Source: Gammaproteobacteria bacterium (lineage in GTDB: Bacteria > Pseudomonadota > Gammaproteobacteria > JAJFKG01). Taken from it: 64,000 nucleotides of DNA. Position 1 is the first letter of the stretch; every line of letters begins with the position of its first letter. The notes beneath the pieces were generated by a model. It was not told where the DNA came from. It worked only from the letters and a program-made list of their open reading frames with translations, and made no database searches. The position numbers and the translations under genes are program-made. This document shows positions 6,287 through 29,495 of the stretch, piece by piece. The DNA is taken from NCBI GenBank assembly GCA_965116795.1, contig OZ220716.1, positions 2,250,503 through 2,314,502 of the forward strand, written 5' to 3'.

Positions 6287-9200
6287 ATGAAAAAGCACAG
6301 ACGTCGTCGTAGAGCAACTAAACAAAATAAACAAAGCACTTTAAAGCAACAGAAATCCCTGAAACAACAAAAAAATAGCCAGCATATCGAGCAATCTGTT
6401 ATTACAGAAACACAGCAAGACACTGCTTCCACAACTGCAAGCACTTTTTCTTGGTTAACAGACACATTAACGGATTCGGCTACAGTATTGTATAAATCAG
6501 CAACAAAAGTCTCTGAGTTATGGTATGGACAATCAACACAAGACACGCAAGAGCATAATTCTAATTCGGAAGAAAATGTATCTGATGAGTCAGATTTTTT
6601 TGCTGAACACGATGGATTCTTTGATATTGACGATGATGATATCGACGATAGCATTCTAAGCATGATTAGGCAAAAACAAGAAGATGATTTTATCTTTGAT
6701 GCATCTGTCTTGGATGAGCTTACTCCTGAAGAATGGGATGCATTAGAAAAAGAAACATTAGCAATCACAAAAGAGATAGAACAAGAACAAATAGTATGCG
6801 AAGCTATAGCTACACAGGAAAAAGAAAACGATATATCTACCTCTCAACCAAATATTTCTGCTGCGCAATATGCAACAGCAGTTGCATTATTCTTAGCGAC
6901 GGGTGGAGCAACGGTTGCTGCTACCGCTGCAGTGATGTTATTTAGTGGCACTGCACTTGCCTCTACTGCTGCCACTGCCACTCTAGATTTAGTAAGTGTA
7001 TATCCTAATGAAGCAAAAAATATAGCAACATCAATTATTCACTATCTCGCAAGGGAAAGTAGTGAAAATGGTGCTTTCAGAAGTCCTGTATTTTGGTTTG
7101 CTTTGTTGAGTTGTGCTGCTAAAGGAGTAGATGCAGCTAAAGCTGTGAATAGCAATGATTACAATGCACGAGAAAATTACTTGCAATTTAAAGAGGCAAC
7201 AGCGTCGAACACATCTTCTTTGGTATTACATTCAAACTCTACCCCAACGCACATACCAGCAATATCAATAGAAAACAGTGCTAATAATCAAAATGCATTG
7301 ACACAACAGCAAAATGCTAGACAAGCTACCAATTCAGCAAATTTATTTGAACCAGTGATTAATGTGTCAACGCTGGATGGAAGTGATGGGTTTCGGATTA
7401 TGAATGAAGAAACAGGTGTAACTCACTGGTCTGTTAGCGAGGCAGGCGATGTGAACGCGGATGGAGTTAATGATGTGATAATAGGGGTGAACGGCGTACG
7501 CTCGTCCAACGGTAATCATGCGGGTTCAAATTATGTGGTATTTGGTCGTCGTGATGGTTTTAATACAATGTTATTGTTATCAATCTTAGATGGAACGACG
7601 GGGTTTCGGATAGGTGGTGAATTAGAAGATTGGTTGGGTTGGGCTATTAATGGTGCGGGAGATGTGAATGCAGATGGAATTGATGATGTGATAGTAGGGG
7701 CACCTGGAACGTCGCCCAGCGGGGTTTCTCGTGCAGGTTCAAGTTATGTGATATTTGGTCGTCGTGATGATTTTAATGCGACGTTATTAGTATCAAACTT
7801 AGATGGGTCGGCAGGTTTTCGGATAGATGGTGAGGCAGCAGGTGACAATTTGGGTTGGTCTGTCAGCGGTGCTGGCGATGTGAATGCGGATGGAATTGAT
7901 GATGTGATAGTAGGGACGATTGGAGCTGTTTCTCGTGCAGGTTCAAGTTATGTGATATTTGGTCGTCGTGATGGTTTTAATGCGACGTTATTAGTATCAA
8001 ACTTAGATGGGTCGACAGGTTTTCGGATAGATGGTGAGGCAGCAGGTGACAATTTGGGGATCTCTGTCAGTGGTGCTGGCGATGTGAATGCGGATGGAAT
8101 TGATGATGTGATAGTAGGGGCACATACAACTTCACCCAATGGGGTCTTTCATGCAGGTTCCAGTTATATCATATTTGGTCGTGCTACTGGCTTTGATTCA
8201 AAGTTTTTATTATCAACGTTAAACGGCACAAATGGCTTTCGGATAGATGGTGAGGCAGCAGATGATGGTTTGGGTTGGTCTGTCAGCGGTGCTGGCGATG
8301 TGAATGCGGATGGAATTGATGATGTGATAGTAGGGACGATTAAATCTTCACCCAATGGGGTCTTTCATGCAGGTTCCAGTTATATCATATTTGGTCGTGC
8401 TACTGGCTTTGATTCAAAGTTTTTGTTATCGACATTAAGCGGTGCAAATGGTTTTCGAATAGATGGTGAGGCGGTAAATGATTATTTAGGTTATTCTGTC
8501 AGCGGAGCGGGCGATGTGAATGCGGATGGAATTGATGATGTGATAGTAGGGGCGACTGAAGCTTCGCCCAATGGGGTCTTTCATGCAGGTTCCAGTTATA
8601 TCATATTTGGTCGTGCTACTGGCTTTGATTCAAAATTTTTATTATTGACGTTAAACGGCACAAATGGCTTTCGGATAGATGGTGAGACAAGAGATAACTG
8701 TTTTGGGGCCTCTGTCAGCGGTGCTGGTGACGTGAATGGTGATGGTGTTGCTGATATGGTAGTTGGACTACGGCACGAGCATCTTTCAAAGAACAAGTAT
8801 TTATCTAGCAGTGTGATATTTGGCAAAGCATTATCACCAAGTTCCTCCCCTAGTTCAAGCTCAAATCCATCACCGTCACCAAGCCCTGCTCCAAATCCGA
8901 ATCCAAGTTCGTCACCCTCACCTAGTGCAAGTCCATTCCCAAGTTCAAGTACACTCCCATCACCAAATGCATTGCCATTATCACCCTCACCCAGTCTACC
9001 AATACCTGACTTTAATTCGATTGTTGGATTATCTAATATAGTAGCTGCCTTGACAGGTGTCGTAAGTGTGATAATGGCATATATAAGTTTGAAAATGGCA
9101 TGTCGAAACCAAGAAGAACAAAGACAACAAGAGGAAATTGAATCAGATAATCTTTTTGAAGATGGAGGCGATGAAGAAAACGTTGAAAATGTCGATGATA

Positions 9201-9322
9201 GTGTCCATTTTAGTCAACGTATTACTAATTGCGGCTTAACTCTTTGGAATGGATTCTCTGCACTTCCAGAGCAACTACCAGATAGGCCAGAATGGCTTAA
9301 TGATTTGCCGTGTTTTAGGTAG
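6287..9322 (+). CDS. FG-GAP (integrin-alpha beta-propeller) repeat protein with Pro/Ser linker and C-terminal TM
   Basis: Seven AGDVNxDGxxD Ca-binding repeats with YxIFG; (SP)n linker; hydrophobic helix near 9020-9090; AAGGAG RBS. Confidence 0.9.
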   Translation: MKKHRRRRRATKQNKQSTLKQQKSLKQQKNSQHIEQSVITETQQDTASTTASTFSWLTDTLTDSATVLYKSATKVSELWYGQSTQDTQEHNSNSEENVSDESDFFAEHDGFFDIDDDDIDDSILSMIRQKQEDDFIFDASVLDELTPEEWDALEKETLAITKEIEQEQIVCEAIATQEKENDISTSQPNISAAQYATAVALFLATGGATVAATAAVMLFSGTALASTAATATLDLVSVYPNEAKNIATSIIHYLARESSENGAFRSPVFWFALLSCAAKGVDAAKAVNSNDYNARENYLQFKEATASNTSSLVLHSNSTPTHIPAISIENSANNQNALTQQQNARQATNSANLFEPVINVSTLDGSDGFRIMNEETGVTHWSVSEAGDVNADGVNDVIIGVNGVRSSNGNHAGSNYVVFGRRDGFNTMLLLSILDGTTGFRIGGELEDWLGWAINGAGDVNADGIDDVIVGAPGTSPSGVSRAGSSYVIFGRRDDFNATLLVSNLDGSAGFRIDGEAAGDNLGWSVSGAGDVNADGIDDVIVGTIGAVSRAGSSYVIFGRRDGFNATLLVSNLDGSTGFRIDGEAAGDNLGISVSGAGDVNADGIDDVIVGAHTTSPNGVFHAGSSYIIFGRATGFDSKFLLSTLNGTNGFRIDGEAADDGLGWSVSGAGDVNADGIDDVIVGTIKSSPNGVFHAGSSYIIFGRATGFDSKFLLSTLSGANGFRIDGEAVNDYLGYSVSGAGDVNADGIDDVIVGATEASPNGVFHAGSSYIIFGRATGFDSKFLLLTLNGTNGFRIDGETRDNCFGASVSGAGDVNGDGVADMVVGLRHEHLSKNKYLSSSVIFGKALSPSSSPSSSSNPSPSPSPAPNPNPSSSPSPSASPFPSSSTLPSPNALPLSPSPSLPIPDFNSIVGLSNIVAALTGVVSVIMAYISLKMACRNQEEQRQQEEIESDNLFEDGGDEENVENVDDSVHFSQRITNCGLTLWNGFSALPEQLPDRPEWLNDLPCFR
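7380..8825 (+). repeat. Intragenic ~207-216-bp FG-GAP repeats
   Basis: Near-identical DNA blocks GATGTGAATGCGGATGGAATTGATGATGTGATAGTAGGG recur. Confidence 0.9.
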
Positions 9323-9747: not shown

Positions 9748-10989
9748 TTAACTTAGCGACACATTCATACTCAGTGAACTGGATGACGATGAGCTACTGT
9801 TCAAGTTTGAGCTATTACTTTTACTTGAGTGTGTGAATGGTTGAGTGACATCTTTTGGCAATGTTACCAGGAAATTATACCACTGACGCGGTATTTCATA
9901 TTTCGGCGTGCTATTATCTTTTGTAGCAATACCTTTTACTTGCTTACGGCACCACGATAGGCAACTATGAGTTTCAATCTGCTGATTTGCACCAAAAAAT
10001 GCGAGCCAACTTGAACTACTACCATAATAAGAAACTACCCCATCGCCTAGTTGACTATAACGCATTGCCTCCTGTTGATCAGAACGAATGTTGCGCAATA
10101 GCCGTTCCCCCTCGTCTGCTGTTATCTCAAATTGATTTGCTTCATACATTGAAGCTGATTTTTTGAATTGTTTCAAGTTATCCAGTGGTCTAAGCGTAAT
10201 AGCGGCCTGTCTACCATCAGTCGTTGTCAATTCGGCGCGAACAATAAACCGCCGGTTTTGTCTAATTCCTTCAATGATGAGAAATCCGTGGCCTACTTCG
10301 CCAGTGTTATTATCAATCATATTACCAACCCAACCACCAATACCCGCACCAATCAAAACACAAGCTAGTGATGCAACACTGATACCAACCAATGCACCAA
10401 CCGAAATACCAACCATCGCAGCGCTAATTCGGTTGTTATGTTTTCTTGCTACCGATAATACCCACACATTTTCACTGACAGTACGTCTCTGACTTTGCCT
10501 CTGGTGTTCTATTCCTACTAAACTTAGCTGGGCTTGATGATGCGCAGTTCCGACAATAGGTTTGAATAATTGACACCACGGCTGATAAGTTATCCCTTCA
10601 TTTTTGTTTGGCTCTCCTCTACTCCCTCGTTGCTTGCATAATCGTTGATTCTCGGTAGAAACATGCAGTGCTTGACTGATATTAAGCCCACTCAGAACTA
10701 ATGCCCCTATCCCCCTATGTACCCATTGAAACTGGGGATGCCACTGCTGTGTCCGTAGATTGTTAATGTCTATTGCCAATAGACAACCGGCAGCTCCTGC
10801 CGCTATCAGCTGATTAGCGCCTATTGCCACAGAGTAAAGAGGAAATCCTAATGGTAACTCTGCCAAACAGCAACCATTCTCTCTATCCCACAGGCGCACA
10901 GTTTTATCCAAGCCCCCTGAGGCAATCACCGAGGCATCAGTGCTTATTGCCACACTTTTAACCGAATTCGTGTGTCCTCTCAGAATATG
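9748..10989 (-). pseudogene. C-terminal fragment of a NACHT-WD40 protein (last WD40 repeats, conserved tail and an extra domain), cut by IS66
   Basis: Frame is open from the IS end at 10989: HILRGHTNSVKSVAISTDASVIASGGLDKTVRLWD; then GLNISQALHVSTENQRLCKQRGSRGEP. Confidence 0.8.
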
Positions 10990-11173: not shown

Positions 11174-12807
11174 GTGAAGAAACCGGAAACGATTGATTTA
11201 AGCCATGCAGAAGCAGAGTCATTACTGTCACGACTTGAAACAGGTAATCTATCAGACACCGATCGCAAGCTATGCAGCAGTGCACTACGCATGGTATTTT
11301 GGTTGCAAGGTCAATTAACCGAAGCCAAACTCAGTATCCGTCGATTGAAGAGAATATTTGGGATCTGCAGCGAAAAACAGGGGTAAAAGGTACATCAACG
11401 TCGGCAAGTTCTTCTGACAAAGTGCCAAAAGACACTGACAACGTTAAGGAAGATGATGTATCTGAGCAATCAAACAAAGGGCATGGACGCTATAGCGCAG
11501 ATGATTATGTTGCAGCAGAAGTTCACAAAGTGAGTGATGAACGTTACTACCCAGGTGCACATTGCTTACATGTTGATTGTAAAGGCCGTTTATATTTATG
11601 GAATAAACCATCAAAAGTGATCCGTTTGTTAGGCCAACCAATGGCGCGGGTTGTACGTTATGACAGAGAGGTCTATCGTTGCGGATTGTGTTTAACGTTA
11701 TTTACAGTGCCGTTACCAAAAGAAAGCGGCAAAGATGTCTATAGCGATAGTTTCAAAGCGGTATTGGCGGTGAATCACTATGTATTTGGTTTGCCATTTT
11801 ATCGGATAGCGAAGTATCACGAAGCGCAAGGCATTCCATTACCGACATCGAATCAATTTGCGTGCATGGAGACGGTGTTTAATCACGTACTTCCTGTTTA
11901 TCAAGCATTGCAACGTACTGCGGCCAACGGCGAGTTGGTCCAATACGATGACACCACAGCGAAGGTCCAAAGCCTCGTGTTAGAAAACCAGGCGCTAGAA
12001 GAAAAAGCACGTCGTGGCATATTTACAACAGCGGCACTATCAAAAGTAGGTGATAACGAAGTGGTATTAGTCTTTACAGGTCGCTCACATGGTGGTGAGA
12101 ATATCACAGCGTTATTGCGCAAACGTGATACTGAGTTAGGGTCTGTTATTTTAATGTCAGATGCGCTGAGTCGAAACCGCATCAAAGACGAGTCGATTGC
12201 CGAACAGACGCAAGTTAGCTATTGTTTAACCCATGCCAGACGCTATTTTTTCGAGTGCAAAGACGTTTATCCGAAGGTATGTCAGCCAGTACTAAACTGG
12301 ATTGGGCAAGTGTATCGACACGAGCGTCATTGTAAAACACATGGCTATACACCAGAGCAACGCCTGCATTATCATCGTCGTCATTCGAAACCGATAATGA
12401 AACAGCTACGGCGATTTTTAGAACAATGTGTTCGAAAACGCTGGGCGGAGCCTAACAGTAGTGCTGGCAAAGCTATCAATTATATGCGCAACCATTTTCG
12501 AGAGTTAACGTTATTTTTATCTGTTCTTGGTGCAGTGCTAGATAACAATGATTCTGAGCGTTTAATTAAGATTGCACCCGTGATGTATCGTAAGAATTCA
12601 CAACAATATCGTACCACTTATGGTGCTATGGTTGGCGACGTGTTGATGAGTGTATTATTCACGGCGCAATATGCTGGTGTTGACCCAGTGGATTATTTAC
12701 AAAGTTTATTGTTGCATAAAGATGAGTTACAACAGCGTGCTAACGATTGGTTACCTTGGCATTATAAGGACACACTCAACACCAAGGCATTAGCCAAAGC
12801 GGCCTAA
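11174..12807 (+). CDS. tnpC: IS66 DDE transposase TnpC in two frames (11174..11386 and 11272..12807; -1 shift near 11372-11386)
   Basis: Same motifs as copy 1; a fused product would be 544 aa. Confidence 0.9.
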
Positions 12808-13614: not shown

Positions 13615-13696
13615 TAAAATGTCCTCTTGATACTGTTAGCAACTTCAGGCTAAACCATCAAAAAACACTATGCACGCACTTTTGCGGGAAGCATAC

Positions 13697-14752
13697 GCTA
13701 AACCCAACGCTTCTCACAATATCCTCGTGACTTCTCAGACGTTGGCACAACTCGCCACTTCCAACATCCCATACGCTCACGGTCTTATCATGACTCCCCG
13801 ACACCACAAGCTTACCATCACCGCTAAATGCAACGCTGTACACCCTATTCTCGTGACCCGTCAGACGTTGGCACAACTCGCCACTATCAACTTCCCATAT
13901 GCACACGGTATTATCCCAACTCCCCGACACCACACACTTGCCATCATCGCTAAACGCAACGCTGTACACATTATCCTCGTGACCCCTCAGACGTTGGCGC
14001 AACTCACCACTCGCAATATCCCATACGCACACGGTCTTATCCCAACTCCCCGACACCACACGCTTGCCATCATCGCTAAACGCAACGCTGTACACATCAC
14101 CCTCGTGACCCCTCAGACATTGACACAACTCGCCACTGCCAACATCCCATACACTCACGGTCTTATCACTACTCCCCGACACCACAAGCTTACCATCACC
14201 ACTAAACGCAACGCTGTACACATCACCCTTGTGACCCCTCAGACATTGGCGCAACTTGCCACTTCCAATATCCCATACGCTCACGGCCTTATCACCACCT
14301 CCCGACACCACATGCTTGCCATCATCGCTAAACCTAACGCTGCTCACCCAACTCTCGTGATCCCGCAGACGATGGCGTAACTCGCCACGCTCAACGTCCC
14401 ATACGCACACGGTCTTATCACCACTCCCCGACACCACATACTTGCCATCACTGCTAAACGCAACGCCGTACACATCACCCTCGTGACCCCTCAGACATTG
14501 GCACAACTCGCCACACTCAACATCCCATACGCTCACGGTAGTATCACTACTCCCCGATACCACATGCTTGCCATTATCGTTAAACCCAACGCTGTTCACA
14601 TCACCCTCGTGACCCGTCAGACGTTGGCGCAACTCGCCACGCTCAACGTCCCACACGCACACGGTCTTATCACCACTCCCCGACACCACATACTTGCCAT
14701 CATCGCTAAACTCAACGCTTGTCACATAACTCTCGTGCCCTCTCAGGATGCG
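13697..14752 (-). repeat. 126-bp WD40 tandem repeats (8 full + 1 partial)
   Basis: Exact 42-codon period, GHE..V.SV.FS.DGK.VVSGS.DKTV.VWD. Confidence 0.95.
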
Positions 14753-16750
14753 CCGTAACGTGCGTGTGGTGGCATCAAATAGATGAATAGCCTTACCACT
14801 CGCCACTGCCAAGTAACTTTCATTCGATGAATACGCCACAGCGTAACATACACTTTCGAATTTCAAGTACGGGTACTCACCAAACTGTATCCCTGACATC
14901 TGCGCCCCTTTAAAGTTCACTTCTCGCAGTGACGCACGGTAAAACGTCACATCCATTAAGTTTGCCCCACTGAAATTCGCCTTATCACAGATGGCACCGG
15001 TTAAATCCGCTCCTGCAATACAGACTCCTTCCAACTTCCATCCATAAAACGATACCCATGCCACATTGAGTATCGTTATTGCATTCGACGCTACCCGTCC
15101 TAAACTCGGTGTATGCCTTGATGCCATCAATACATCAATGAGGCGTCGTTTGAAGTCAGGGTTCTCCCTGGCCATCTCTGCCAATCGCGTGATTATCTCT
15201 GGCTCTTTCACCAGTAACATTCGATTTAATCCGCGCCTGGGTGGTGAAGGGTCTACACCATTTTTAGACGCCTGTATCAGTGACAGTTCTTCTACCATCA
15301 CCCTGTGCGCTACCAAATATTCTGTCACCGACTTGTGTAAGAACTTAAATTCACCTTCTTCTAAATAATCATCTTCATCCACTCGACCATACAACAGATG
15401 AAGTAAGCAGCTAGAGCGTATATCGCGAAAGTTAGTATTAGGGGTTCCGTCTGTGTCAAAAAATAAGGTGCGCGGATGGCGCTTATGCAGTAGTTCAATC
15501 AAGTTAGGCTGTAATGTCTCTTCTGCGGTTAACGAGCGCTCATTTAATTGACCAGTTTCATCATCAAGTAAGAAAAGTGCTAAGTTCTCTGCATACCCTC
15601 GCATGTAACGAATAACGTCTTTTTGGCATAACTTAGGACAACTCGATGATAAGAGGTTTTTTGCTCTGCCTCGGGCAATTTCCTTAACAAACCAACCGCC
15701 ACAAGGCTCGCCTTTATCATTTGGCACTCCCTCAAGAAAGTAGTGGAATATACTGCTTTGGGTGAAACGCGGTATGTTAGCAGCACTAGCTTTAGGCAGC
15801 TTGTCAATATACGGCAAGATGTCGGTCACCATGCGTAACAAAAACGGTGTCGTCACTAAGGCTTTGAGTGATGGTAATTGTGTTAACTGGTGATAATAGC
15901 GTTCGCTGTCTGATTTCGTCTTAAAGCACGCTTTAAAATACGCCTGAATCTGTTCATCAGTAAACGGTTGTAAATATTGTCTGGTATACGTGGCTAACTG
16001 ACCTGAAAACTCACCACCGGCTTCAAACAATGCCGATAAATTCTCATGCAGTAACACGTCAGGGCGACAGGTAACAACTACCTGAATATCATAGCCATGC
16101 TCTCCCCATCCTTGTAGTCGATAAATATTCTCACGAAAAGTAATTTCATCAAAACCATCCAGAAAAATCAGCAATGGCTTTGTCTTAACTATCTCGATTT
16201 CTTCATCAGAAAGCTGATGTTTTCTTAATACCGTCTCTAATAACGTGCCTTTATCTAATTTCCCTTTATCTACTAACTGTTTCTCGCGGTGAAGTTGCTT
16301 ATCGTAATTCGGTAAATAAATGTATAACGGTAATCGGGGTAATGGTGCATTGGGATTGGTTTTAAGCTGTTCTCGTATCCGTCTCCATACCGTCTGGCAA
16401 GTCAGCAAACTAAAATACGACTTGCCCATCCCCGCTTGACCTAATAACAAGAGTGAGCGTTTTGAACTGTCGAGAAATTCGTTGACTTTATCTGCTAAAG
16501 GCAAACAGCTTTCAGCGCTGGCTCTTTCTCTATCTGAAGTTAACGGCGGAATATAAATCTCACCTAATCTCGGATCAAATGCACCACTGTAGTAATCAGC
16601 AAGTTGCTTAATTAACTCTTTTTTATTTTTCAGTGGTTTCTTCGATTTGCTAGGCGTTTGTTTAATATACTGATCAAAATGCTGTTCAGTATATTGTTCA
16701 CAAATAATTGCCTTTTGTGGTCTCTGGCTCGCTTCGTTAGCTTGCTTCAC
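13697..16750 (-). pseudogene. NACHT NTPase-pentapeptide-WD40 (NLR-like) protein, interrupted by IS66
   Basis: Walker A GQAGMGKS, Walker B LIFLDGFDE, VVVTCR, FLHKSVTEYL, pentapeptides GADLTGAICDKANFSGANL, eight full WD40 repeats; the last 12 residues of the ORF are IS-derived. Confidence 0.9.
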
Positions 16751-16791: not shown

Positions 16792-18834
16792 TTACTTTGG
16801 GCCATCTAACCCAAACATTTTTTCAGCTAAATTTTCAACTTTCTCTTCAGATAGCATTTTTCCTTGCACAGCATTAACTTCATTATCTTCTCCACCGTAT
16901 TCTAAATTTTCAGCAATAAAGTTTCCTTTATTTCCTTTCCCTTCAATTTTAAATAAGGATGGCTGCTGTCCGGTACTACTTGACTGAGATTGAGGATGCT
17001 CTGCTTCATGACTATCACTATCTGATCGTTTTGTTCTTTTTTTCCGTCTTTTTTCTTTCTTTTCTTGTTTTTCCGCTTTTTTTGAAGGTTCCGCTCCGAA
17101 CAATCCACTTCCACCGCCCAGCTCCTGTGCCGATTTCCGCTCCCTGCGCGCTTCCTCAACCATCTCTTCATCTGAACTACTTGCTTCCTCTCTCTTTTTC
17201 TTATGCTTTTTCTTCTTCCCTTCTTTCTCTTTTCCTTTCAGAGAAGGTGGTGATGTCGTGCGTTCATTTAAATCAATATCCTCTTCTTCCGGCGGTGGTG
17301 CACTGGGGATTGGTAATGTTTCAGGCATGAGCAACACCTGAGGACTACTACCTCTATCTTGTTCGTGTTGACTCATAGCCAACGGTGGAGGTGACATACC
17401 ACGCGTCTGCCATGGTGTATGCTTTGATGGGATTGCAACACCTGCACCATGTTGCTGTTGCTTATCCAGTGGCTCTATTATCATTGCACTTGGAGAAAGA
17501 CTATTACTAATAGCATGCCGCAACCTTTCACTTAACTCTTCTTGATTACTGAGATAAGATAATTTATTTCTGGCGTACTCTCTTTTGTGAGTAGATTTTC
17601 TATTCTCAGATAACTTGCCTAGTACACTTAGCACTTTGCGCTGAAAGTGTCGCTCAGCAACTGTGTCGCCTGAATAAGTAAGCAGTAAGTCAGTCAGCAA
17701 ATCACATACAAATGCTTGCGCATACTTACCTTTTACTTTTTTGGGTTCTTCTATTTGCTTAAATAATTTATCTAATAAGTTATATAGCTGATCACTATAA
17801 GTTTCATCATTTTCCTTCTTGCTTTTTACCAAAAAAAGCATAGCTCCCATTAATAGTTGTTTAAACAACATGGCTTTGTCATACCATTTCTCTTGCATAG
17901 GCTTCATGTGAAACGCTTCACTGAATTGTTCAATCCCTTCTATGGTATTGGTGAATGTCAATACGGCAGATACACCACTGACAGGTACTAACAGCGCTGC
18001 ACCAGCTGCCATTGCGAAATGTTTTACGCCTAACACAAACGCAATGCCTTTACGAAGCCGTAAATCACTCTTTGATTCATCACTACCAACACGCCGTAAC
18101 GCTTGGTATGCCACTGCTGCTTGCAGTGACAACGAAATATCGCTACGCTTTTTACCACTTACAATATCAAGCAGTTTATTTAATAGCGCATCAGTCTTTT
18201 GCTTATCTGCACCATTTACATCAGCAGCCAATGCGGCTTCTAAAAATAAATTCAGTGCAATGAGACAATGCATATCAGGTTTAATTTTCTCTGCAAAAAT
18301 AGTTAATATTGCCTCGTACTTTGTATCATCCATCCACTGTTGCTTATTTTCATATAATAAAATAATTTGAGTTAAGCCCAACAATGCTGGGAGATTGCCT
18401 AACGGATGGCTAGATAAATCATACAGCCTTCTTAAAATAGCTTGATATACATCGCTATCCTTTACTCCTGCCAACATCACTAATGTGTTAATTTCTTGTT
18501 GCGATAGACTTTGTTTGCCAGTTAGTTTACTGACTTTATCGTTTATATATGACAAGTGTGCTTGTTTGTGTTCAGTATTAAATTGAGATACTAAACCAGA
18601 CCACCTTTGCAGTTGTGTAGCTTCTTCGACTCTATTTGTTACTGCCAAAGAAGAGGAAGCTAGCGGACTGCTTACTGATAATTGCGATGATGAAGAGGGA
18701 ACAGGTGATAATGATCTGACATGACTACTATTGCTACTAGAAGAAACTGATGACGATGAGTGGCTGTAGCTACCGCTGGGTTCGTCCTTTACGATTGTGC
18801 TTTTGCTTTCTTTTTTTCTTGTTTCCATGTACAT
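16792..18834 (-). CDS. Hypothetical helical protein with Ser-rich and Lys/Glu-rich disordered regions; probable N-terminal module or partner of the NACHT protein
   Basis: AAGGAG RBS; long ORF; QAAVAYQAL..V.SDE motif; co-oriented and 41 bp from the NACHT ORF. Confidence 0.7.
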   Translation of the reverse strand: MYMETRKKESKSTIVKDEPSGSYSHSSSSVSSSSNSSHVRSLSPVPSSSSQLSVSSPLASSSLAVTNRVEEATQLQRWSGLVSQFNTEHKQAHLSYINDKVSKLTGKQSLSQQEINTLVMLAGVKDSDVYQAILRRLYDLSSHPLGNLPALLGLTQIILLYENKQQWMDDTKYEAILTIFAEKIKPDMHCLIALNLFLEAALAADVNGADKQKTDALLNKLLDIVSGKKRSDISLSLQAAVAYQALRRVGSDESKSDLRLRKGIAFVLGVKHFAMAAGAALLVPVSGVSAVLTFTNTIEGIEQFSEAFHMKPMQEKWYDKAMLFKQLLMGAMLFLVKSKKENDETYSDQLYNLLDKLFKQIEEPKKVKGKYAQAFVCDLLTDLLLTYSGDTVAERHFQRKVLSVLGKLSENRKSTHKREYARNKLSYLSNQEELSERLRHAISNSLSPSAMIIEPLDKQQQHGAGVAIPSKHTPWQTRGMSPPPLAMSQHEQDRGSSPQVLLMPETLPIPSAPPPEEEDIDLNERTTSPPSLKGKEKEGKKKKHKKKREEASSSDEEMVEEARRERKSAQELGGGSGLFGAEPSKKAEKQEKKEKRRKKRTKRSDSDSHEAEHPQSQSSSTGQQPSLFKIEGKGNKGNFIAENLEYGGEDNEVNAVQGKMLSEEKVENLAEKMFGLDGPK

Positions 18835-22385: not shown

Positions 22386-22973
22386 TTAGCCGGCTAATGA
22401 ATAAGCAGTCAGCTGATGTGTATCAACCCGACGCAATTCCTTCTCAACATAACGCAACAATGTCGCGTTAAGCATTGCTTCACGCCACACTTGTATTTGC
22501 TCACTAGTATTGGAAATGCGGCTACGTAGGAATGCCACTGCATCTTTACCATCTTTAATTGTTGGCTTCTGTTGTAAACTTGCATTAGGTAATGATGCTG
22601 GCAACAGATTCGTACGCAATTCCAATGTTATTAATCGTCGAATATTTTCAGGAATACTGCTGACAGTACAGAGTGAACGCCGCTGTAATGATTGAAAGTC
22701 ACTCATTGGCAAACGAGACCATCGAGCTAGCTGTTCACGATGAGTATTCAACAAAGAACGACTCATTAAATCAGTGTGAGTAAAGGAGTGCCAACTTGTG
22801 ATCAGGTTTTTTGCTTTTTCAGAAAGGTGACTATAGTTCGATGCCCCACTGCAAAAGAAATTGGTATGTAAACTAAGTTCTAGTTCTTCATTTGCATTAG
22901 CAGAACATAATGCTTGCGTATGCGGCCTCTCATCTTGCAAATGTCTTATTCTTCTCCTTGGCATAGTTAACAT
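22386..22973 (-). CDS. Hypothetical protein (paralog of 25790..26362)
   Basis: Shared SWH.FTHTDL, LITLELRT.LLP.SLPNASLQQ and C-terminal SLAG. Confidence 0.8.
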   Translation of the reverse strand: MLTMPRRRIRHLQDERPHTQALCSANANEELELSLHTNFFCSGASNYSHLSEKAKNLITSWHSFTHTDLMSRSLLNTHREQLARWSRLPMSDFQSLQRRSLCTVSSIPENIRRLITLELRTNLLPASLPNASLQQKPTIKDGKDAVAFLRSRISNTSEQIQVWREAMLNATLLRYVEKELRRVDTHQLTAYSLAG

Positions 22974-23102: not shown

Positions 23103-23302
23103 CCGTCATCCCGTGATGATCCGGTTTCTATACAAATAACGCAACTACCCTCTCTCTACGACCGTCATCCCGCGGCGCGCTCTTTCCGTCATCCCGCGGC
23201 TTGACCGCGGGATCCAGGGAACAAAACTCAGAGGTAAAACAACGGTGAACATCAGAATAATTACACGATTCTCTGGATCCCGCGGTCAAGCCGCGGGATG
23301 AC
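23103..23302. repeat. REP/REPIN-like palindromic element with two extra truncated arms
   Basis: Perfect 30-bp inverted repeat GTCATCCCGCGGCTTGACCGCGGGATCCAG at 23188-23217 / 23273-23302; partial arms at 23103 and 23162. Confidence 0.9.
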
Positions 23303-23314
23303 AGAATAACTACT

Positions 23315-25474
23315 TTAAGTAAGGCTTGGTGCTTCTGTTTGCTCTGATGCATCTTTGACTTCTGACAATGGCATTTGTTGATCATCAGTTGTTTGCTGCA
23401 CAGGATTCTCAGCTAGGTTTAATCTATGGATTGATGATGACAACTCTGGTTTTGATGATGACTCCACTGATCGCACACAAGCTTCATATTCAGACCGTAA
23501 TTCTTCATCACAATACACTTTCCAAACTGCTTCTTGCTGCTCAAGACTAGCTTGTGGATTAGCCTTAACAAATTTTTCTAAATTATCAGTTACAGTATCA
23601 GTTATATCCTTTTTTAGTTCTTCAATATCAAGAGCATTTTTTTCAATATCTGACCAAAATTGATGAGTGAACATATACTCTTGAATTTTTTCACAGTTAA
23701 TATAATAGTCATGATAATACTTTAATTGTTCATCACAATGAACTGTCCAAACTGCTTCTTGCTGCTCAAGACTAACCTCTCGATTACTCTTAACAAATTC
23801 TCCTAAACGATTCATTACAACATCAACTATATCATCTCTTAGCATCTCAATATCATCAGCATGTTTTTCAATAACTGACCAGAAAACATGAGCAGATATA
23901 TAGTTTTGAACTTTTTCGAAGTTTATACAGTCATCATAATGATATTTTAATCTTTTATCACAGTCTTCTGTAATATATTTTTGTATATCTTCTTTTGACA
24001 CTGGAACTGCCATATCATTTTTACGCTGAATAGATCGAGCTAAATTCATTTGTATTGTTTCGCTAATCTGATTTTTTAATTTCTTAGGATCTTCTATCAA
24101 CTTCTGAATATCTTGCCAATAATCATGTTTATCAATATAAGCTTGAATGTCACTATCAATCGTTTTTAAATAATCATTCAACTCTACTCTGTAAATGTTT
24201 GCCACATAGTTCCGACATACTCCATCTTTCAAAGATTCTGCTAATAGTTCATTCATGGCAGGTGTTATAATCTTTGCAATATTTTCTACTGTTGGCGCAT
24301 TGTCTTGTATTCTACGTGAAGCGAAATAATCTTTAAAGCGATACAGCGATAATTTTTCATTTAAGAAATTTTGGTATAACTCATCTACCCTATGTTTAAG
24401 ATCAGGAAGACCTTGACAGCATTTAGTTATTTCTTTTCTGATAGACAGTAAATTTTTATTTAACTTTTTATCCTGCTGCTTCAATGCATTTTCAATAGTG
24501 CCAAAGAATAATTTTTTCTGGCTCGCCAAATAATAAATAATATGTTGCAAATGATTTGAAAAATCAACACATGCTTGAATACGCTCATCAAGCAAAAGTT
24601 CTTTTGCTTCTCTTTTAATAAGTTCGTGATAAAAAGTATATTGATCAGGTTCTAATAAGATCATATGCGCAGATGAATACAATGCTTGCTGAAAATAGTC
24701 ATCAGCTTGCTGAGCATGCACTGTTAACATACCTTGTACTAACTGTTCCTTTTGCAATGGTATATCAGGTATATTTTGGCAAATCTCATCAGAAAATTTG
24801 TTGGCTGTCTCCCCCACTTTTTGATTTAGTTTAATGTTAGGCCAATCAATAGTCTTACTTATGTCGTTGGCAAGCACATACGTTAATATCTGTATTTTTA
24901 AATCACCTTTTAATTCTTTTCTCAAGAAATCAAGCATGCTTGTTATATCTATGCAAGCTAAGCCTTCTTTCTTCTCATCATACTTTTTACCAAATTCTGC
25001 TGCTAATCCTTTATCTTTATTGCTAGGGTTTCGCTTATTATCTAGCTCTTGCATAGCTTGATGATGCCAGTAGACTTTCTTACCCTTTATCTCTATCCGT
25101 CTCTTTGTTTTCTCATCCGTATACTTATAACTATATTGATGTCTACGATTTAAAAAATTAGTATACCATTGTTGATAATGTTGATATAACCGTTCTGTAA
25201 TAAGCTCATGGTGTTGTTGCAAAATCACCTTAGGAAATGCTGTATGTATTTTACGATCTGCAGCAATTGCCTCTTTATATACCATTGCTTCATTTCTTTT
25301 ATTAGCTTTCCGAGTAGGGACAGTGTGATAGCTCTTAATAGGTGGGACTTCTTCTTCCAGCCAACTAACATGGCGTTGTTCCTGACCCTTTGACTGAGAT
25401 TGTTTTAAAATTGACTTTTTAGGTTGTTTTGACGGATCGAATTTGCTAGCAGGGGAAGCTGGGAATAGAAACAT
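23315..25474 (-). CDS. Hypothetical helical repeat protein, effector candidate with SILK/RVxF motifs
   Basis: 719-aa AT-rich ORF; paralog of 26681..28699; three ~75-aa C-terminal repeats. Confidence 0.8.
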   Translation of the reverse strand: MFLFPASPASKFDPSKQPKKSILKQSQSKGQEQRHVSWLEEEVPPIKSYHTVPTRKANKRNEAMVYKEAIAADRKIHTAFPKVILQQHHELITERLYQHYQQWYTNFLNRRHQYSYKYTDEKTKRRIEIKGKKVYWHHQAMQELDNKRNPSNKDKGLAAEFGKKYDEKKEGLACIDITSMLDFLRKELKGDLKIQILTYVLANDISKTIDWPNIKLNQKVGETANKFSDEICQNIPDIPLQKEQLVQGMLTVHAQQADDYFQQALYSSAHMILLEPDQYTFYHELIKREAKELLLDERIQACVDFSNHLQHIIYYLASQKKLFFGTIENALKQQDKKLNKNLLSIRKEITKCCQGLPDLKHRVDELYQNFLNEKLSLYRFKDYFASRRIQDNAPTVENIAKIITPAMNELLAESLKDGVCRNYVANIYRVELNDYLKTIDSDIQAYIDKHDYWQDIQKLIEDPKKLKNQISETIQMNLARSIQRKNDMAVPVSKEDIQKYITEDCDKRLKYHYDDCINFEKVQNYISAHVFWSVIEKHADDIEMLRDDIVDVVMNRLGEFVKSNREVSLEQQEAVWTVHCDEQLKYYHDYYINCEKIQEYMFTHQFWSDIEKNALDIEELKKDITDTVTDNLEKFVKANPQASLEQQEAVWKVYCDEELRSEYEACVRSVESSSKPELSSSIHRLNLAENPVQQTTDDQQMPLSEVKDASEQTEAPSLT

Positions 25475-25659
25475 AATAATTAGCCTTTTATTTTAATTAG
25501 TTAAATACACCCCTCCATAGTCAATTTATATCCTTATTACAAAAACAGTAGATTATACCTGAAAAATCTAGAAAGTCACGCAAAAATCGCCCATTCTCAA
25601 TCACCGCTAAGTTCATCTTTTTTTGGATATATAAGATGATACTTGCTGGGTTAAACAAT

Positions 25660-25790
25660 TAATGATGGAATTTTCACTTGCAAGCGGAAACTGCGGTGAT
25701 GCACTGGGCTTGAGCCAAGTGTTGCCAATGCGATTATCAAACAATACATATTCCACATGGATATTGTAATCACTGAGAATATTAGTAACT
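25660..25790. pseudogene. Chimeric remnant of the rnhB 3' end and the ppsR 3' end
   Basis: 25671-25727 matches the rnhB end at ~28898-28954 (5 mismatches in 57 nt); 25724-25790 matches the ppsR end and downstream sequence. Confidence 0.88.
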
Positions 25791-26362
25791 CAACCGGCTA
25801 ATGAATGGCAAGCTGACTGTGCGTTACCCTGACGCAATTCCTTTTCAACATAACTCAACAATGTGGCTTTAACAATTGTTTCACGCCATGCTTGTATTTG
25901 CTCATCATCATTGGCAATACGGCTACGCAGGTATGCTACCGCATTTCGACCATCTTCAATTGTTGCGTGCTGTTGCAAACTTGCATTGGGTAATGATTCT
26001 GGCAACAGACTCGTACGCAATTCCAGTGTAATCAATTGTCGAACAACTTCAGGAATACTACTGATAGCAAATAGTGAACGCTGCTGCAATGATTGGAATT
26101 CGCCTGTTGGTAAATGAGCCCATTGACTTGACTGTTCATGATAGGTCCCTAATAAAGCAGGGCTTATTAAATCAGTATGAGTAAAGGCATGCCAACTTGC
26201 GATCAATACTTTTGCTTCTTCAGAGAGATCACTATACTTAGACACACCCGTTCGAAAAAAATTGGTACGTAAACTAAGCTGTAATTCGTCATCTATATCA
26301 TTTGAACACATAGCCTGCGAATGAGGAGGCTCGTTTTGAAAGTTTATCCTGAACACGATCAA
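25790..26362 (-). CDS. Hypothetical protein (paralog of 22386..22973)
   Basis: Colinear similarity with 22386..22973. Confidence 0.8.
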   Translation of the reverse strand: MIVFRINFQNEPPHSQAMCSNDIDDELQLSLRTNFFRTGVSKYSDLSEEAKVLIASWHAFTHTDLISPALLGTYHEQSSQWAHLPTGEFQSLQQRSLFAISSIPEVVRQLITLELRTSLLPESLPNASLQQHATIEDGRNAVAYLRSRIANDDEQIQAWRETIVKATLLSYVEKELRQGNAQSACHSLAG

Positions 26363-26416: not shown

Positions 26417-26549
26417 ACCTTAAGCATATGCAACAGTTTTTATAGAGTTCACTGCAAGTACAAATTGATAACTAATGCCATGTTCAACTTTAACTAACAT
26501 AACAAGCCAAATGATTTTGCTTTCAAAAACAACTTACTCTTCCCCGCAG

Positions 26550-26671
26550 CCGTCATCCCGCGGCTTGACCGCAGGATCCACGGAACAACGCTCAAGAATA
26601 AAAAACAGAACAAACATCAATGTTAATACACACAATTCCCTGGATCCCGCGGTCAAGCCGCGAGATGACGG
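26550..26671. repeat. REP/REPIN-like palindromic element
   Basis: CCGTCATCCCGCGGCTTGACCGCAGGATCCA ... TGGATCCCGCGGTCAAGCCGCGAGATGACGG (2 mismatches). Confidence 0.9.
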
Positions 26672-26680
26672 AATAGTTAC

Positions 26681-28699
26681 TTAAGTAAGGCTTGGTACTT
26701 CTGTTTTCTCTGATACAGCTTTTGCGTCTTTGACTTCTGACAAAGGCATTTGTTGATCATCAATTGTTTGCTGTACAGGATTCTTAACCAGATTGAATCT
26801 CAGGGATGATGATGCCAACTTTGATTTTGATGATGACTCCATTGATCGCACACAAGTTTCATATTGAGATTGTAATTGCTCATCACAATAAGCTTTCCAG
26901 ACCGCTTTTTGCTTCTCAATACTAGCTTGCGGATTACTGCTAATAAATGCTTTTAGTTCATTCACAGCAGCATTAGCTATCTTACCTTTTAATACATTTA
27001 CATCATCAGTATCTTCTTTGATTAATGACCAATGACGATGATGCTTAATATAAGATCCAACTTCCTTAAAGTACATATAATCATTATAATAAGCTTGCAA
27101 TTTTTCATTACAGAGATTTTGCCAAATTTCAGTTAACTCTTTTTCAGACGGAAAAACAGAGAATTGTGTTTTTCGCTTAATAACAGTATCTAATTTCATT
27201 TTGACTGCATTAGCAATATTATTCTTTATAATAGCAGGGTCGGCTGCTGTCTTTTGAAAAGACTGCCAATAATCATGCTTATCAATGTAGCCCCGAATGT
27301 CAGCATCAATCCTTTTAATATAACGTTGCAGTTCTTTTTGATAAGTACTTACCACATAACATTCACACTGTTTCTTTCGCAAAAAGTCCGCTAATGGATC
27401 AGTTAGAACTGGTGTTATAATGTCTGCTATATTAGCTGCTGTTGGCGTATTGTCTTGTAGCTTAAGCCGAGCAAAATAATCTTGAGAACAGGGTGACCAC
27501 AGCATATCATTTAACTTTTGTTGATATAATTCATTCGCTCTATCCCTAAAATCAGGAAAATATTGACAATACGTAGTTATTCCTTTTTCTACAGCGACAA
27601 GTGCTTTATTTAATCTCTCATCTTTTTGCTTTAATGCGTCTTCAATAGCTTTGGAAAATAGCACTTTTTGACTAGCCAAGTAAATAATAGCACTTGAAAA
27701 ACAATTTGACAGCTTAATACACGTTTGAATATGACCATCAGTTAATAGCTCTTTTGCTTTCCCCTTAATAAGCTCGTGATAAGTAGTATATTGATCAGGG
27801 TCGAAAAAGAGCATGAACGCTAATGAATATAATGTTTTCTCAAAGCATTCATCAGCTTGTTGAGCATGCAACGTTAATATACCTTGTGCTAACTGTGTTT
27901 TTTGTAATGGTATGCTAGGTATAGCTTGATACAACTCATCAACAAACTTATTAACTGTATCAATCACCTTTTGACTCATCCTAGTATTAGCCCAATCAAT
28001 AGATTTACTTATATCTTCAGAAATTAAGCATACCAATAGCTTTATTCGCAAATCGCCTTGTAATTCCTCTCTCAAGAAAACAAGAAAATTGGTTATATCA
28101 ATAGAAGATAATTCTTCTTGCTTTTTTTCTTTTTCCTTATATTTTTCATCAAATTCTTCTGCTAATCCCTTATTTTTATTGCGAGGATCTCTCATTATAT
28201 CTATTGCTTCCATGACTTGATGATGCCTATAGAATTTTCTCGACTTATGTGATGTTTTGAAGTGGGTAAATTCATGTTGTCGATTTAAAAAACCATCATA
28301 CCATCGGCGATAGTATTGATATAAAAATTCTGCAATATGATCGCAGTGTTGTTGCCAAATAAGTGGAGGGAATAATTCTTGTATCTGTTTATCGTTAACA
28401 ATTGCTTCTTTATATACAACTGCTTCAGCCTGTTTATTAGTGTCTCTAGTAGGGATAGCATGATGGCTATTAATAAGATGACCTGCTTCATCTTCAGACC
28501 AACTAATATGACCTTTTTCGCTGCTTACCGGTTTACCATCTGCATTTGCATTAGCCTCGCTCATGCCTTGCGAACCAACGCCTGCCCTTTCAGGTACATT
28601 TGTTTCATTCTCATTGGCTTGAGACTGTTTTAAAATTGACTTTCCAGGTTTTTTTGAAGAATCGAATCTGCTAGCAGATGAAGATGGAAACAGAGCCAT
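26681..28699 (-). CDS. Hypothetical helical repeat protein, effector candidate (paralog of 23315..25474)
   Basis: 672 aa; KSILKQSQ, HISW; C-terminal QQMPLSEVKDA...PSLT shared with the paralog. Confidence 0.8.
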   Translation of the reverse strand: MALFPSSSASRFDSSKKPGKSILKQSQANENETNVPERAGVGSQGMSEANANADGKPVSSEKGHISWSEDEAGHLINSHHAIPTRDTNKQAEAVVYKEAIVNDKQIQELFPPLIWQQHCDHIAEFLYQYYRRWYDGFLNRQHEFTHFKTSHKSRKFYRHHQVMEAIDIMRDPRNKNKGLAEEFDEKYKEKEKKQEELSSIDITNFLVFLREELQGDLRIKLLVCLISEDISKSIDWANTRMSQKVIDTVNKFVDELYQAIPSIPLQKTQLAQGILTLHAQQADECFEKTLYSLAFMLFFDPDQYTTYHELIKGKAKELLTDGHIQTCIKLSNCFSSAIIYLASQKVLFSKAIEDALKQKDERLNKALVAVEKGITTYCQYFPDFRDRANELYQQKLNDMLWSPCSQDYFARLKLQDNTPTAANIADIITPVLTDPLADFLRKKQCECYVVSTYQKELQRYIKRIDADIRGYIDKHDYWQSFQKTAADPAIIKNNIANAVKMKLDTVIKRKTQFSVFPSEKELTEIWQNLCNEKLQAYYNDYMYFKEVGSYIKHHRHWSLIKEDTDDVNVLKGKIANAAVNELKAFISSNPQASIEKQKAVWKAYCDEQLQSQYETCVRSMESSSKSKLASSSLRFNLVKNPVQQTIDDQQMPLSEVKDAKAVSEKTEVPSLT

Positions 28700-28877: not shown

Positions 28878-29495
28878 TTAGGCAATTGATGATGCAGTTT
28901 TCGCTTGCAAGCGAAAACTGCGGCGATGCACTGGGCTTGGGCCGAGTGTTGCCAGTGCAGCGTAATGTGCTTTGGTTGGATACCCTTTATGTTGGGCAAA
29001 CCCATAGCCAGGGTAATGAGTGTCATACTCGATTAACAACCGATCACGACTGACTTTGGCAAGAATCGACGCTGCACTGATTGCAGCAACTTTGCTATCG
29101 CCTTGTATGATCGCTTCAGATGAGCAGGGTAAATCAGGCGTACGATTACCATCAACTAATACATGATCAGGCACTACGGTCAATTGCGCTACTGCACGTT
29201 GCATGGCTAACATGCTCGCCCATAAAATGTTTAATTGATCAATTTCATTAACATCAGCACTGGCCACTGCCCACGCTGTCGCTTGGGTAGTAATCACTGT
29301 ATACAACTGTTCACGTTGCTTTGCAGTGAGTTTCTTAGAATCGGTTAATTTAGGTATATCGTAATGAGTCGGTAATATCACTGCTGCAGCAACCACTGGG
29401 CCTGCTAATGGGCCACGGCCAGCTTCATCGACACCAGCAATGTGTTGGTCAGTAGGCATCCGTTGTGTTTCCAAATTCCATTGATGACTATTCAA
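28878..29495 (-). CDS. rnhB: Ribonuclease HII
   Basis: [30 protein letters not shown]. Confidence 0.97.

Follow-up and report, generated by a model that had tools for sequence, protein, structure and literature searches.

The 64,000-nucleotide window analysed here (positions 2,250,503 to 2,314,502 of contig OZ220716.1, GenBank assembly GCA_965116795.1) belongs to a gammaproteobacterium of the lineage JAJFKG01, whose genome (G000) is a single contig of 2.45 Mb and whose family comprises three genomes in the collection. On its minus strand, at 23315..25474, lies P0001, an orphan open reading frame (ORF) of 719 amino acids (aa) that is a candidate effector of the Dot/Icm secretion system. The protein starts with a low-complexity N-terminus carrying a string that resembles the docking motifs of protein phosphatase 1 (PP1), continues as a helical body with three repeats of about 74 aa found with a repeat hidden Markov model (HMM; residues 439-509, 511-584 and 586-659, at 23498..24160, minus) and ends in an acidic tail. 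A paralog, P0002 (672 aa, 47% identical), lies on the same strand at 26681..28699. Neither protein matched a family above the cut-off in Pfam or NCBIfam searches, and the GC content of both genes is low (33% for P0001, in the lowest 3% of 1298 ORFs; P0002 within the lowest 5%). Residues 1-33 of P0001 are 76% disorder-promoting by composition. The structure is predicted to be all-helical at low confidence (mean pLDDT 34; too poor for a structure search), with residues 1-58 modelled entirely as coil, but again at a mean pLDDT of 34. We infer that the motif-bearing N-terminus is disordered. Contigs from a run of a second study span 25211-25513 and 28367-28638 without a single differing letter; the motifs in P0001 and P0002 are therefore not assembly errors. 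These contigs offered no coding variants for a selection test.

The string extends from K20 to R55 of P0001 (25417-25310, minus) and reads, exactly as the initial annotation had given it, KSILKQ, then eight residues, then RHVSWLEEEVPPIKSYHTVPTR. Its SILK motif (K20-SILK24, with S21ILK; 25403..25417, minus) agrees with the consensus [GS]IL[KR] (PMC9582199), and its RVxF-type motif, R34-H-V-S-W38 (25361..25375, minus), fits all four RVxF patterns tried. The extension past W38 (25310..25360, minus) places E40 at +2, I46 at the +8 lid position, Y49-H50 at the +11/+12 phi-phi positions and V52 at +14, followed by P-T-R55. These offsets are identical to those of two eukaryotic PP1 regulators that target the enzyme to glycogen, GM (PPP1R3A) and PTG (PPP1R3C). 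In the GM:PP1 structure the residues are F68, D70 (salt bridge to PP1 R261), L76 (lid), V79-K80 (phi-phi) and F82 (PMC6235537), and in PTG they are F87, D89, L95, I98-H99 and F101 (PMC9582199); general definitions of the motifs are given in PMC7599070 and PMC5005033. P0001 shares the His at +12 with PTG and the Ser at the x position with GM. It differs from both in that W replaces F in the RVxF motif and V or I replaces F at +14 within the family, and P0001 and P0002 have neither the carbohydrate-binding domain CBM21 nor any other Pfam domain; the likeness is likely convergence, not homology. Moreover, SILK stands upstream of RVxF in P0001, whereas the SALK of PTG stands downstream and GM has no SILK (PMC9582199). 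In KNL1 and inhibitor-2 (and in RIF1 and CSRNP), too, a SILK of the form (G/S)IL(K/R) precedes RVxF, and the flexible linker between them is not fixed in length. These are eukaryotic proteins with unrelated bodies; no likeness to the active-site helix of inhibitor-2 was seen here.

The initial annotation had taken PNUTS- or RepoMan-type docking as the closest model, with an acidic residue, a phi-phi pair and an Arg after the RVxF motif. The GM/PTG register fits better: E40 and the phi-phi pair fall into it, and the canonical Arg spacing is not found. The RVxF patterns, of the form [KR]x(0-1)[VI]x[FW], and the PNUTS-type Arg spacing are, where no paper is cited, general background. The PNUTS/spinophilin-type pattern in its usual spacing, RVxF-x(5-8)-phi-phi-x(8-9)-R, occurs in neither P0001 nor P0002. 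R55 lies only 5 residues past H50, and an Arg stands 4-6 residues past the phi-phi pair in P0001, P0002 and the protein P0003 described below.

In P0002 the N-terminus reads GKSILKQ, then, in the alignment with P0001, an insertion of 29 columns, then KGHISWSEDEAGHLINSHHAIPTR. Its K20-SILK24 motif lies at 28628..28642 (minus), and a degenerate RVxF motif (K62-G-H-I-S-W67) with an extension to R85 at 28445..28516 (minus). In register with GM and PTG are E69 (+2), L75 (+8) and H79 (+12); S occupies +11 and A occupies +14, I82 being one residue late. P0002 also has one repeat unit fewer than P0001, seen as a gap of 75 alignment columns. Residues 1-28 are 71% identical between the two paralogs and residues 59-563 are 49% identical, at similar synonymous identity (0.74 versus 0.72), which suggests that the N-terminus is under selection. 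Over the last 49 residues the identity is 78%. There the synonymous sites are closer as well (0.86), so gene conversion may have contributed.

A further member was reached through a neighbouring gene and not through the motif, with the register pattern written down beforehand. Behind P0001 lies a 195-aa orphan gene for a small helical protein (22386..22973, minus), and behind P0002 its 190-aa paralog (25790..26362, minus; 63% identical). The partner gene has a 33% identical homolog in a genome of the same genus, G001 (E 8e-8), and the ORF directly before that homolog encodes P0003, an orphan of 555 aa (both genes at L155:8421-10803, on G001:C43). P0003 carries K63SILR, 14 residues, K82HVLW, I94 at +8, F97-F98 at +11/+12, I100 at +14 and then P, so that SILK, RVxF, lid and phi-phi are kept in a protein other than the paralog. 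When P0003 was shuffled 150,000 times, 27 shuffles gave the string without the +2 position and 822 gave SILK plus the core RVxF. The motif stretch is where P0001 and P0003 align best (E 1e-5), and it was the sole match when G000 was searched with P0003 (E 0.025). The invariant positions in the alignment of the three proteins are K-S-I-L, H, W, I and P. SILK is present in all three (KSILK, KSILK, KSILR), with linkers of 9, 39 and 14 residues to the RVxF motif, and P0001 and P0003 fit the GM/PTG offsets +8, +11/+12 and +14, P0002 partly. For a general SILK-RVxF spacing of 7 to 55 residues we found no printed source.

The large gene and the partner gene occur together in all three loci (two in G000, one in G001), at different genomic places in the two genomes. 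The orthology of P0003 rests on this arrangement and on the motif; the bodies of P0001 and P0003 show only scattered likeness, in the last repeat, and that of P0003 has either diverged past recognition or been replaced. No transmembrane stretch was found in the three proteins, whose peak 19-residue hydropathy is 0.59, 1.14 and 1.26. The small downstream gene probably encodes a partner of the effector, a chaperone or a regulator; its protein was predicted at pLDDT 72, and the best structural match (Z 6.4) is a common helical arrangement and as such uninformative. The N-terminus of P0003 also contains basic clusters, DKRKR and PLKRTR, which we take to resemble nuclear localisation signals, and it has Leu at the RVxF x position, which leaves no phosphorylation switch possible there.

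How far the string exceeds chance was assessed on 2084 ORFs of G000 against 120 shuffled proteomes. The GM register alone occurs in 3 of the 2084 ORFs, with 2.65 expected. SILK combined with the full GM register occurs in P0001 only and arose once in the 120 shuffled proteomes; among 150,000 shuffles of P0001 itself, 12 gave SILK plus the register without the +2 acid. The longer string is above chance.

Homologs of P0001 beyond itself and P0002 were found neither in 5.8 billion proteins nor in 1.84 billion representatives. A P0001 search of 60 relatives gave none (P0003 was missed by that search), a P0003 search returned P0003 itself only, a profile of all three proteins returned only P0001 and P0002, and no relatives were found in 595 candidate stretches of metagenome contigs. 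A profile of the motif stretch, run over 400 scored genomes of the class, recovered the three known places and two weak matches; the latter were rejected as parts of housekeeping-type genes, presumably MsrP-like and RNase E-like. The same profile found nothing in five genomes (0/5) and gave only chance matches, at E ~1, among Protein Data Bank (PDB) sequences. The partner-gene profile was present in G000 and G001 and absent from G002 and from four other IcmW-bearing genomes. In the ESM Atlas, neither P0001 nor P0004 nor the partner protein of G001 had a usable match.

The Dot/Icm route envisaged in the initial annotation has its genes in G000: a Dot/Icm system, spread over two loci, includes a coupling protein as well as IcmS and IcmW, which are effector adaptors. 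IcmQ, IcmS, IcmW, DotD, a DotC-type protein, DotH, DotI and DotM are above the Pfam cut-off, and DotB, DotN, IcmT, IcmV and DotA/TraY above that of NCBIfam. IcmX, DotF, DotG and DotK matched below cut-off, several components fell below the equivalog cut-off, and the gene at the IcmB/DotO position gave a weak VirB4 match only. IcmW was found in all three genomes of the family and in none of 14 controls; that of G000 is 48-60% identical to the IcmW of 20 of 21 loci (Coxiellaceae, Legionellaceae and unclassified gammaproteobacteria) and 85% identical to one. A eukaryotic PP1 query, taken from a metagenome locus and identified against the PDB, found no match in G000. The host-interaction repertoire of the genome includes 51 ankyrin matches, a class of match that 5 of the 14 controls also have, and a 570-aa protein with a U-box and tetratricopeptide repeats (TPR; G000:C1:1411232-1412944, minus; L173), likely a ubiquitin ligase effector of eukaryotic type. 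A search for F-box proteins had no match anywhere and is hence uninformative. As to the host, a protist is our default guess.

Hijacking of host PP1, predicted here, is known from other pathogen proteins, among them Pi04314 of the oomycete Phytophthora, RipAS of Ralstonia, viral Tat, measles V and pUL21 of herpes simplex virus (HSV); AvrE reportedly binds TOPP. RipAS is described as associating with plant PP1 without an RVxF motif (PMC10273071), and a review of viral PP1 binders names SILK once, in its general introduction (PMC10807198). The closest precedent is LpPIP (Lpg1625) of Legionella pneumophila, which recruits host PP1 to mitochondria by one RVxF motif and a tail anchor. LpPIP sets the location of PP1, not its substrate specificity, and its authors regard the RVxF as likely the only PP1 motif; they list eleven further RVxF-bearing effectors, and the word SILK does not occur in the main text (PMC12313075). 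P0001 resembles LpPIP in its Dot/Icm context and in an N-terminal RVxF for host PP1, shown for LpPIP and predicted here. Unlike the tail-anchored LpPIP, P0001-P0003 are proteins of 555-719 aa without a transmembrane stretch and have the SILK, lid and phi-phi positions in addition; they are set apart from it on its published description, the homolog searches with P0001 having given the two paralogs only. Because LpPIP already recruits PP1 through RVxF, the idea of a PP1-recruiting effector is less new than the initial annotation implied. Such recruitment has a precedent, but an effector family that carries a multi-motif clamp would be new; among open-licence papers we found no bacterial effector with a SILK plus RVxF (plus phi-phi) clamp.

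We lean somewhat towards reading P0001 and its relatives as effectors injected by the Dot/Icm system that act as targeting subunits of host PP1. With its acidic tail as the signal, the protein would pass through Dot/Icm into a eukaryotic host cell. There the unfolded N-terminus would wrap PP1, with SILK in the acidic groove, V36 and W38 in the RVxF pocket, E40 on PP1 Arg261 and I46 as the lid; Y49-H50-x-V52 would continue as a strand along PP1 beta-14 into the phi-phi and Pro298 pockets and leave the active site open, as in GM. The helical body with its repeats, a part that evolves quickly between copies, would then take PP1 to a place or substrate, and host kinases might switch binding off at S21 and S37, as happens in KNL1 and GM. 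In P0002, PP1 binding is probably weaker or tuned differently. The secreted PP1-docking effector of the initial annotation keeps the Dot/Icm genes, the register of solved complexes and the string of P0003 on its side, and has lost the intact RVxF of the paralog and the canonical Arg. Also in favour of the targeting-subunit reading are the low GC of both genes, the ankyrin and U-box proteins, the lack of a PP1 match in G000, the LpPIP precedent and the KKxVxW of a second, unrelated orphan pair described below.

Several results weigh against this reading. SILK plus RVxF alone is at chance level in G000: RVxF-like matches occur in 525 of the 2084 ORFs, SILK followed by a standard RVxF within 5-60 residues in 4, compared with 3.3 per shuffled proteome (395 in 120), and the combination inside the first 100 residues once, with 1.2 expected. 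Very many windows were scanned, so that now and then chance alone will produce a rare string. The KGHISW of P0002 matches none of the four RVxF patterns, only a lax one, and falls outside [KR]x[VI]x[FW] because K62 stands three residues before I65. The initial annotation's statement that both motifs survive in the paralog across an insertion of about 29 residues thus holds for SILK and for the insertion; of RVxF only the hydrophobic I-x-W core is kept, and the canonical basic residue is missing. Nor is SILK a lone island of conservation, because residues 1-28 are well conserved throughout, and so is the C-terminal stretch of 50 residues. P0003 has Q and no acid at +2, so the full register pattern failed and this position was dropped from the shuffle test. 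Homology of its body to P0001 is not established: the comparison gives z 2.1-2.5, a score reached in 12 and 5 of 300 shuffles and by 3 of 663 unrelated ORFs; that with P0002 gives z 1.2-1.5, and P0003 is missed by the HMMs. The family consists of three proteins from two genomes, of which P0001 and P0002 are not independent. Finally, the C-terminal Dot/Icm signal is an acidic block with a hydrophobic residue or Pro at -3/-4. The three proteins have 5, 4 and 3 acidic residues at -25 to -8 (at least 5 are found in 7% of 1594 ORFs), and a hydrophobic residue or Pro at -3/-4 is present in 53% of ORFs; the acidic C-terminus, earlier called compatible with Dot/Icm export, is weakly suggestive.

Host PP1 could instead be bound as a sink or inhibitor, in that the effector outcompetes host regulators, or to keep the effector itself or partner effectors dephosphorylated, with no substrate chosen by the body. 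A designed peptide with SILK plus RVxF plus phi-phi-xF binds PP1 at ~4 nM, in competition with the regulators of the cell (PMC11536154), sequestration was raised by the LpPIP authors themselves (PMC12313075), and the body of the three proteins is poorly conserved and has no membrane anchor. However, a helical body of 500-600 residues with repeats, present in all three proteins, is more than a sink needs, and the GM binding mode leaves the PP1 active site free (PMC6235537); we consider this alternative rather unlikely. That the family binds PP1, be it as targeting subunit or as sink or inhibitor, appears quite probable.

The proteins may also be effectors whose N-terminal string serves another job, for instance binding to the small partner, to a chaperone of secretion or to a different host protein, the likeness to PP1 docking being coincidental. 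The degenerate RVxF of P0002, the frequency of RVxF-like matches and the constant company of the partner gene would agree with this. It would leave to coincidence that two motifs for one enzyme keep their proper order across linkers of 9, 39 and 14 residues, and that the downstream offsets fit two crystal structures, which makes it distinctly unlikely. An unsecreted pair with an intrabacterial role, for instance a two-gene mobile or toxin-antitoxin-like unit, is highly improbable: low GC, duplication and different placement in G000 and G001 speak for it, but the pair is without Pfam or NCBIfam match, G000 has no PP1 match, and Dot/Icm substrates typically are orphans with low GC and ends of low complexity.

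The two units of large and partner gene in G000 form a tandem duplication of ~3.2 kb that begins inside the 3' end of an rnhB-like gene at 28878-29495, which we take to be rnhB from a motif. The region upstream of P0001 (25475..25731, minus) duplicates that before P0002 (80% over 342 nucleotides) and carries a copy of this 3' end. An identical promoter-like site, GTGACT-16-TATAAT, lies upstream of both genes; such sites are at chance level overall. A palindromic intergenic repeat follows P0002 at 26536..26680, with a copy near 23186-23308 behind P0001 and dozens of genomic matches (60 blastn lines). In G000 the duplicated pair is flanked by the rnhB-like gene (window 28878) and a ppsR-like gene (window 22361). 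In G001 a dnaE-like gene comes directly after the rnhB-like gene and an ampG-like gene directly after the ppsR-like gene, all four names being our presumptive assignments. Because its flanking genes thus have other direct neighbours in G001, the pair sits at a point of rearrangement.

Elsewhere in the window, a 680-aa Ser- and Lys-rich orphan (16792-18834, minus) has a weak ARM-like match and a paralog of 38% identity (G000:C1:2330133-2331566) and is a candidate effector. A 1030-aa protein (13658-16750, minus) has WD40 repeats and a pentapeptide-like stretch besides an NTPase-like N-terminal part, so called from what we take to be a P-loop. A second ORF, at 9748-10953 (minus), lies past an IS66 transposase (11272-12807) and begins with a WD40 remnant; the IS66 element may have split a longer gene or displaced part of it. 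A protein of 1011 aa (6287-9322, plus) has a basic N-terminus, seven FG-GAP repeats, a Ser/Pro stalk and two hydrophobic stretches.

A second pair of orphans, unrelated to P0001 and P0002, was noted elsewhere in the genome (255 and 260 aa, 43% identical, without Pfam match; G000:C1:364201-364968, minus, L171, and G000:C1:1956449-1957231, plus, L172). Both proteins have KK-x-V-x-W in a low-complexity tail (PKKTVHW and VKKKVTW); in the first, a SILK follows 40 residues downstream, which is the PTG order, and each gene stands behind a 651-aa Ser-rich orphan. The pair was not found in G001 or G002. Of 170 low-GC ORFs, 3 have a VxW-type motif in such a setting, compared with none of 1128 others, and 0 of 60 block shuffles reach 3, for a pattern chosen post hoc; with V/I and F/W allowed, the same test gives 4 versus 1.9 and no enrichment. 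Another low-GC orphan of 449 aa (G000:C1:2049838-2051187, plus) has RISF ahead of a poly-Ser run, and its C-terminal part presumably resembles an OTU-type cysteine protease (DDGNCWY, NHY).

PP1 obtains its specificity from regulators that wrap it through several short motifs, and the only motif-mapped bacterial mimic that we found in print relies on one motif and does no more than relocate the enzyme. If the targeting-subunit reading of P0001 is true, the convergence of a bacterial protein on a multi-motif clamp, GM/PTG register included, would show the reach of motif mimicry, and a natural tight PP1 binder would be at hand for comparison with designed ones. As to method, whole-protein searches can fail among billions of sequences where motif strings in floppy ends still point to kindred effectors and to what these target in the host. 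More tentatively, it is possible that this deep, Dot/Icm-bearing lineage, in two or more unrelated effector families, independently built full PP1 clamps of eukaryotic grade (SILK, RVxW, lid and phi-phi), keeping the clamp while swapping or rapidly rewriting the body. If true, these bacteria would own a kit of substrate-choosing PP1 holoenzymes that goes beyond a single-motif relocaliser of the LpPIP kind.

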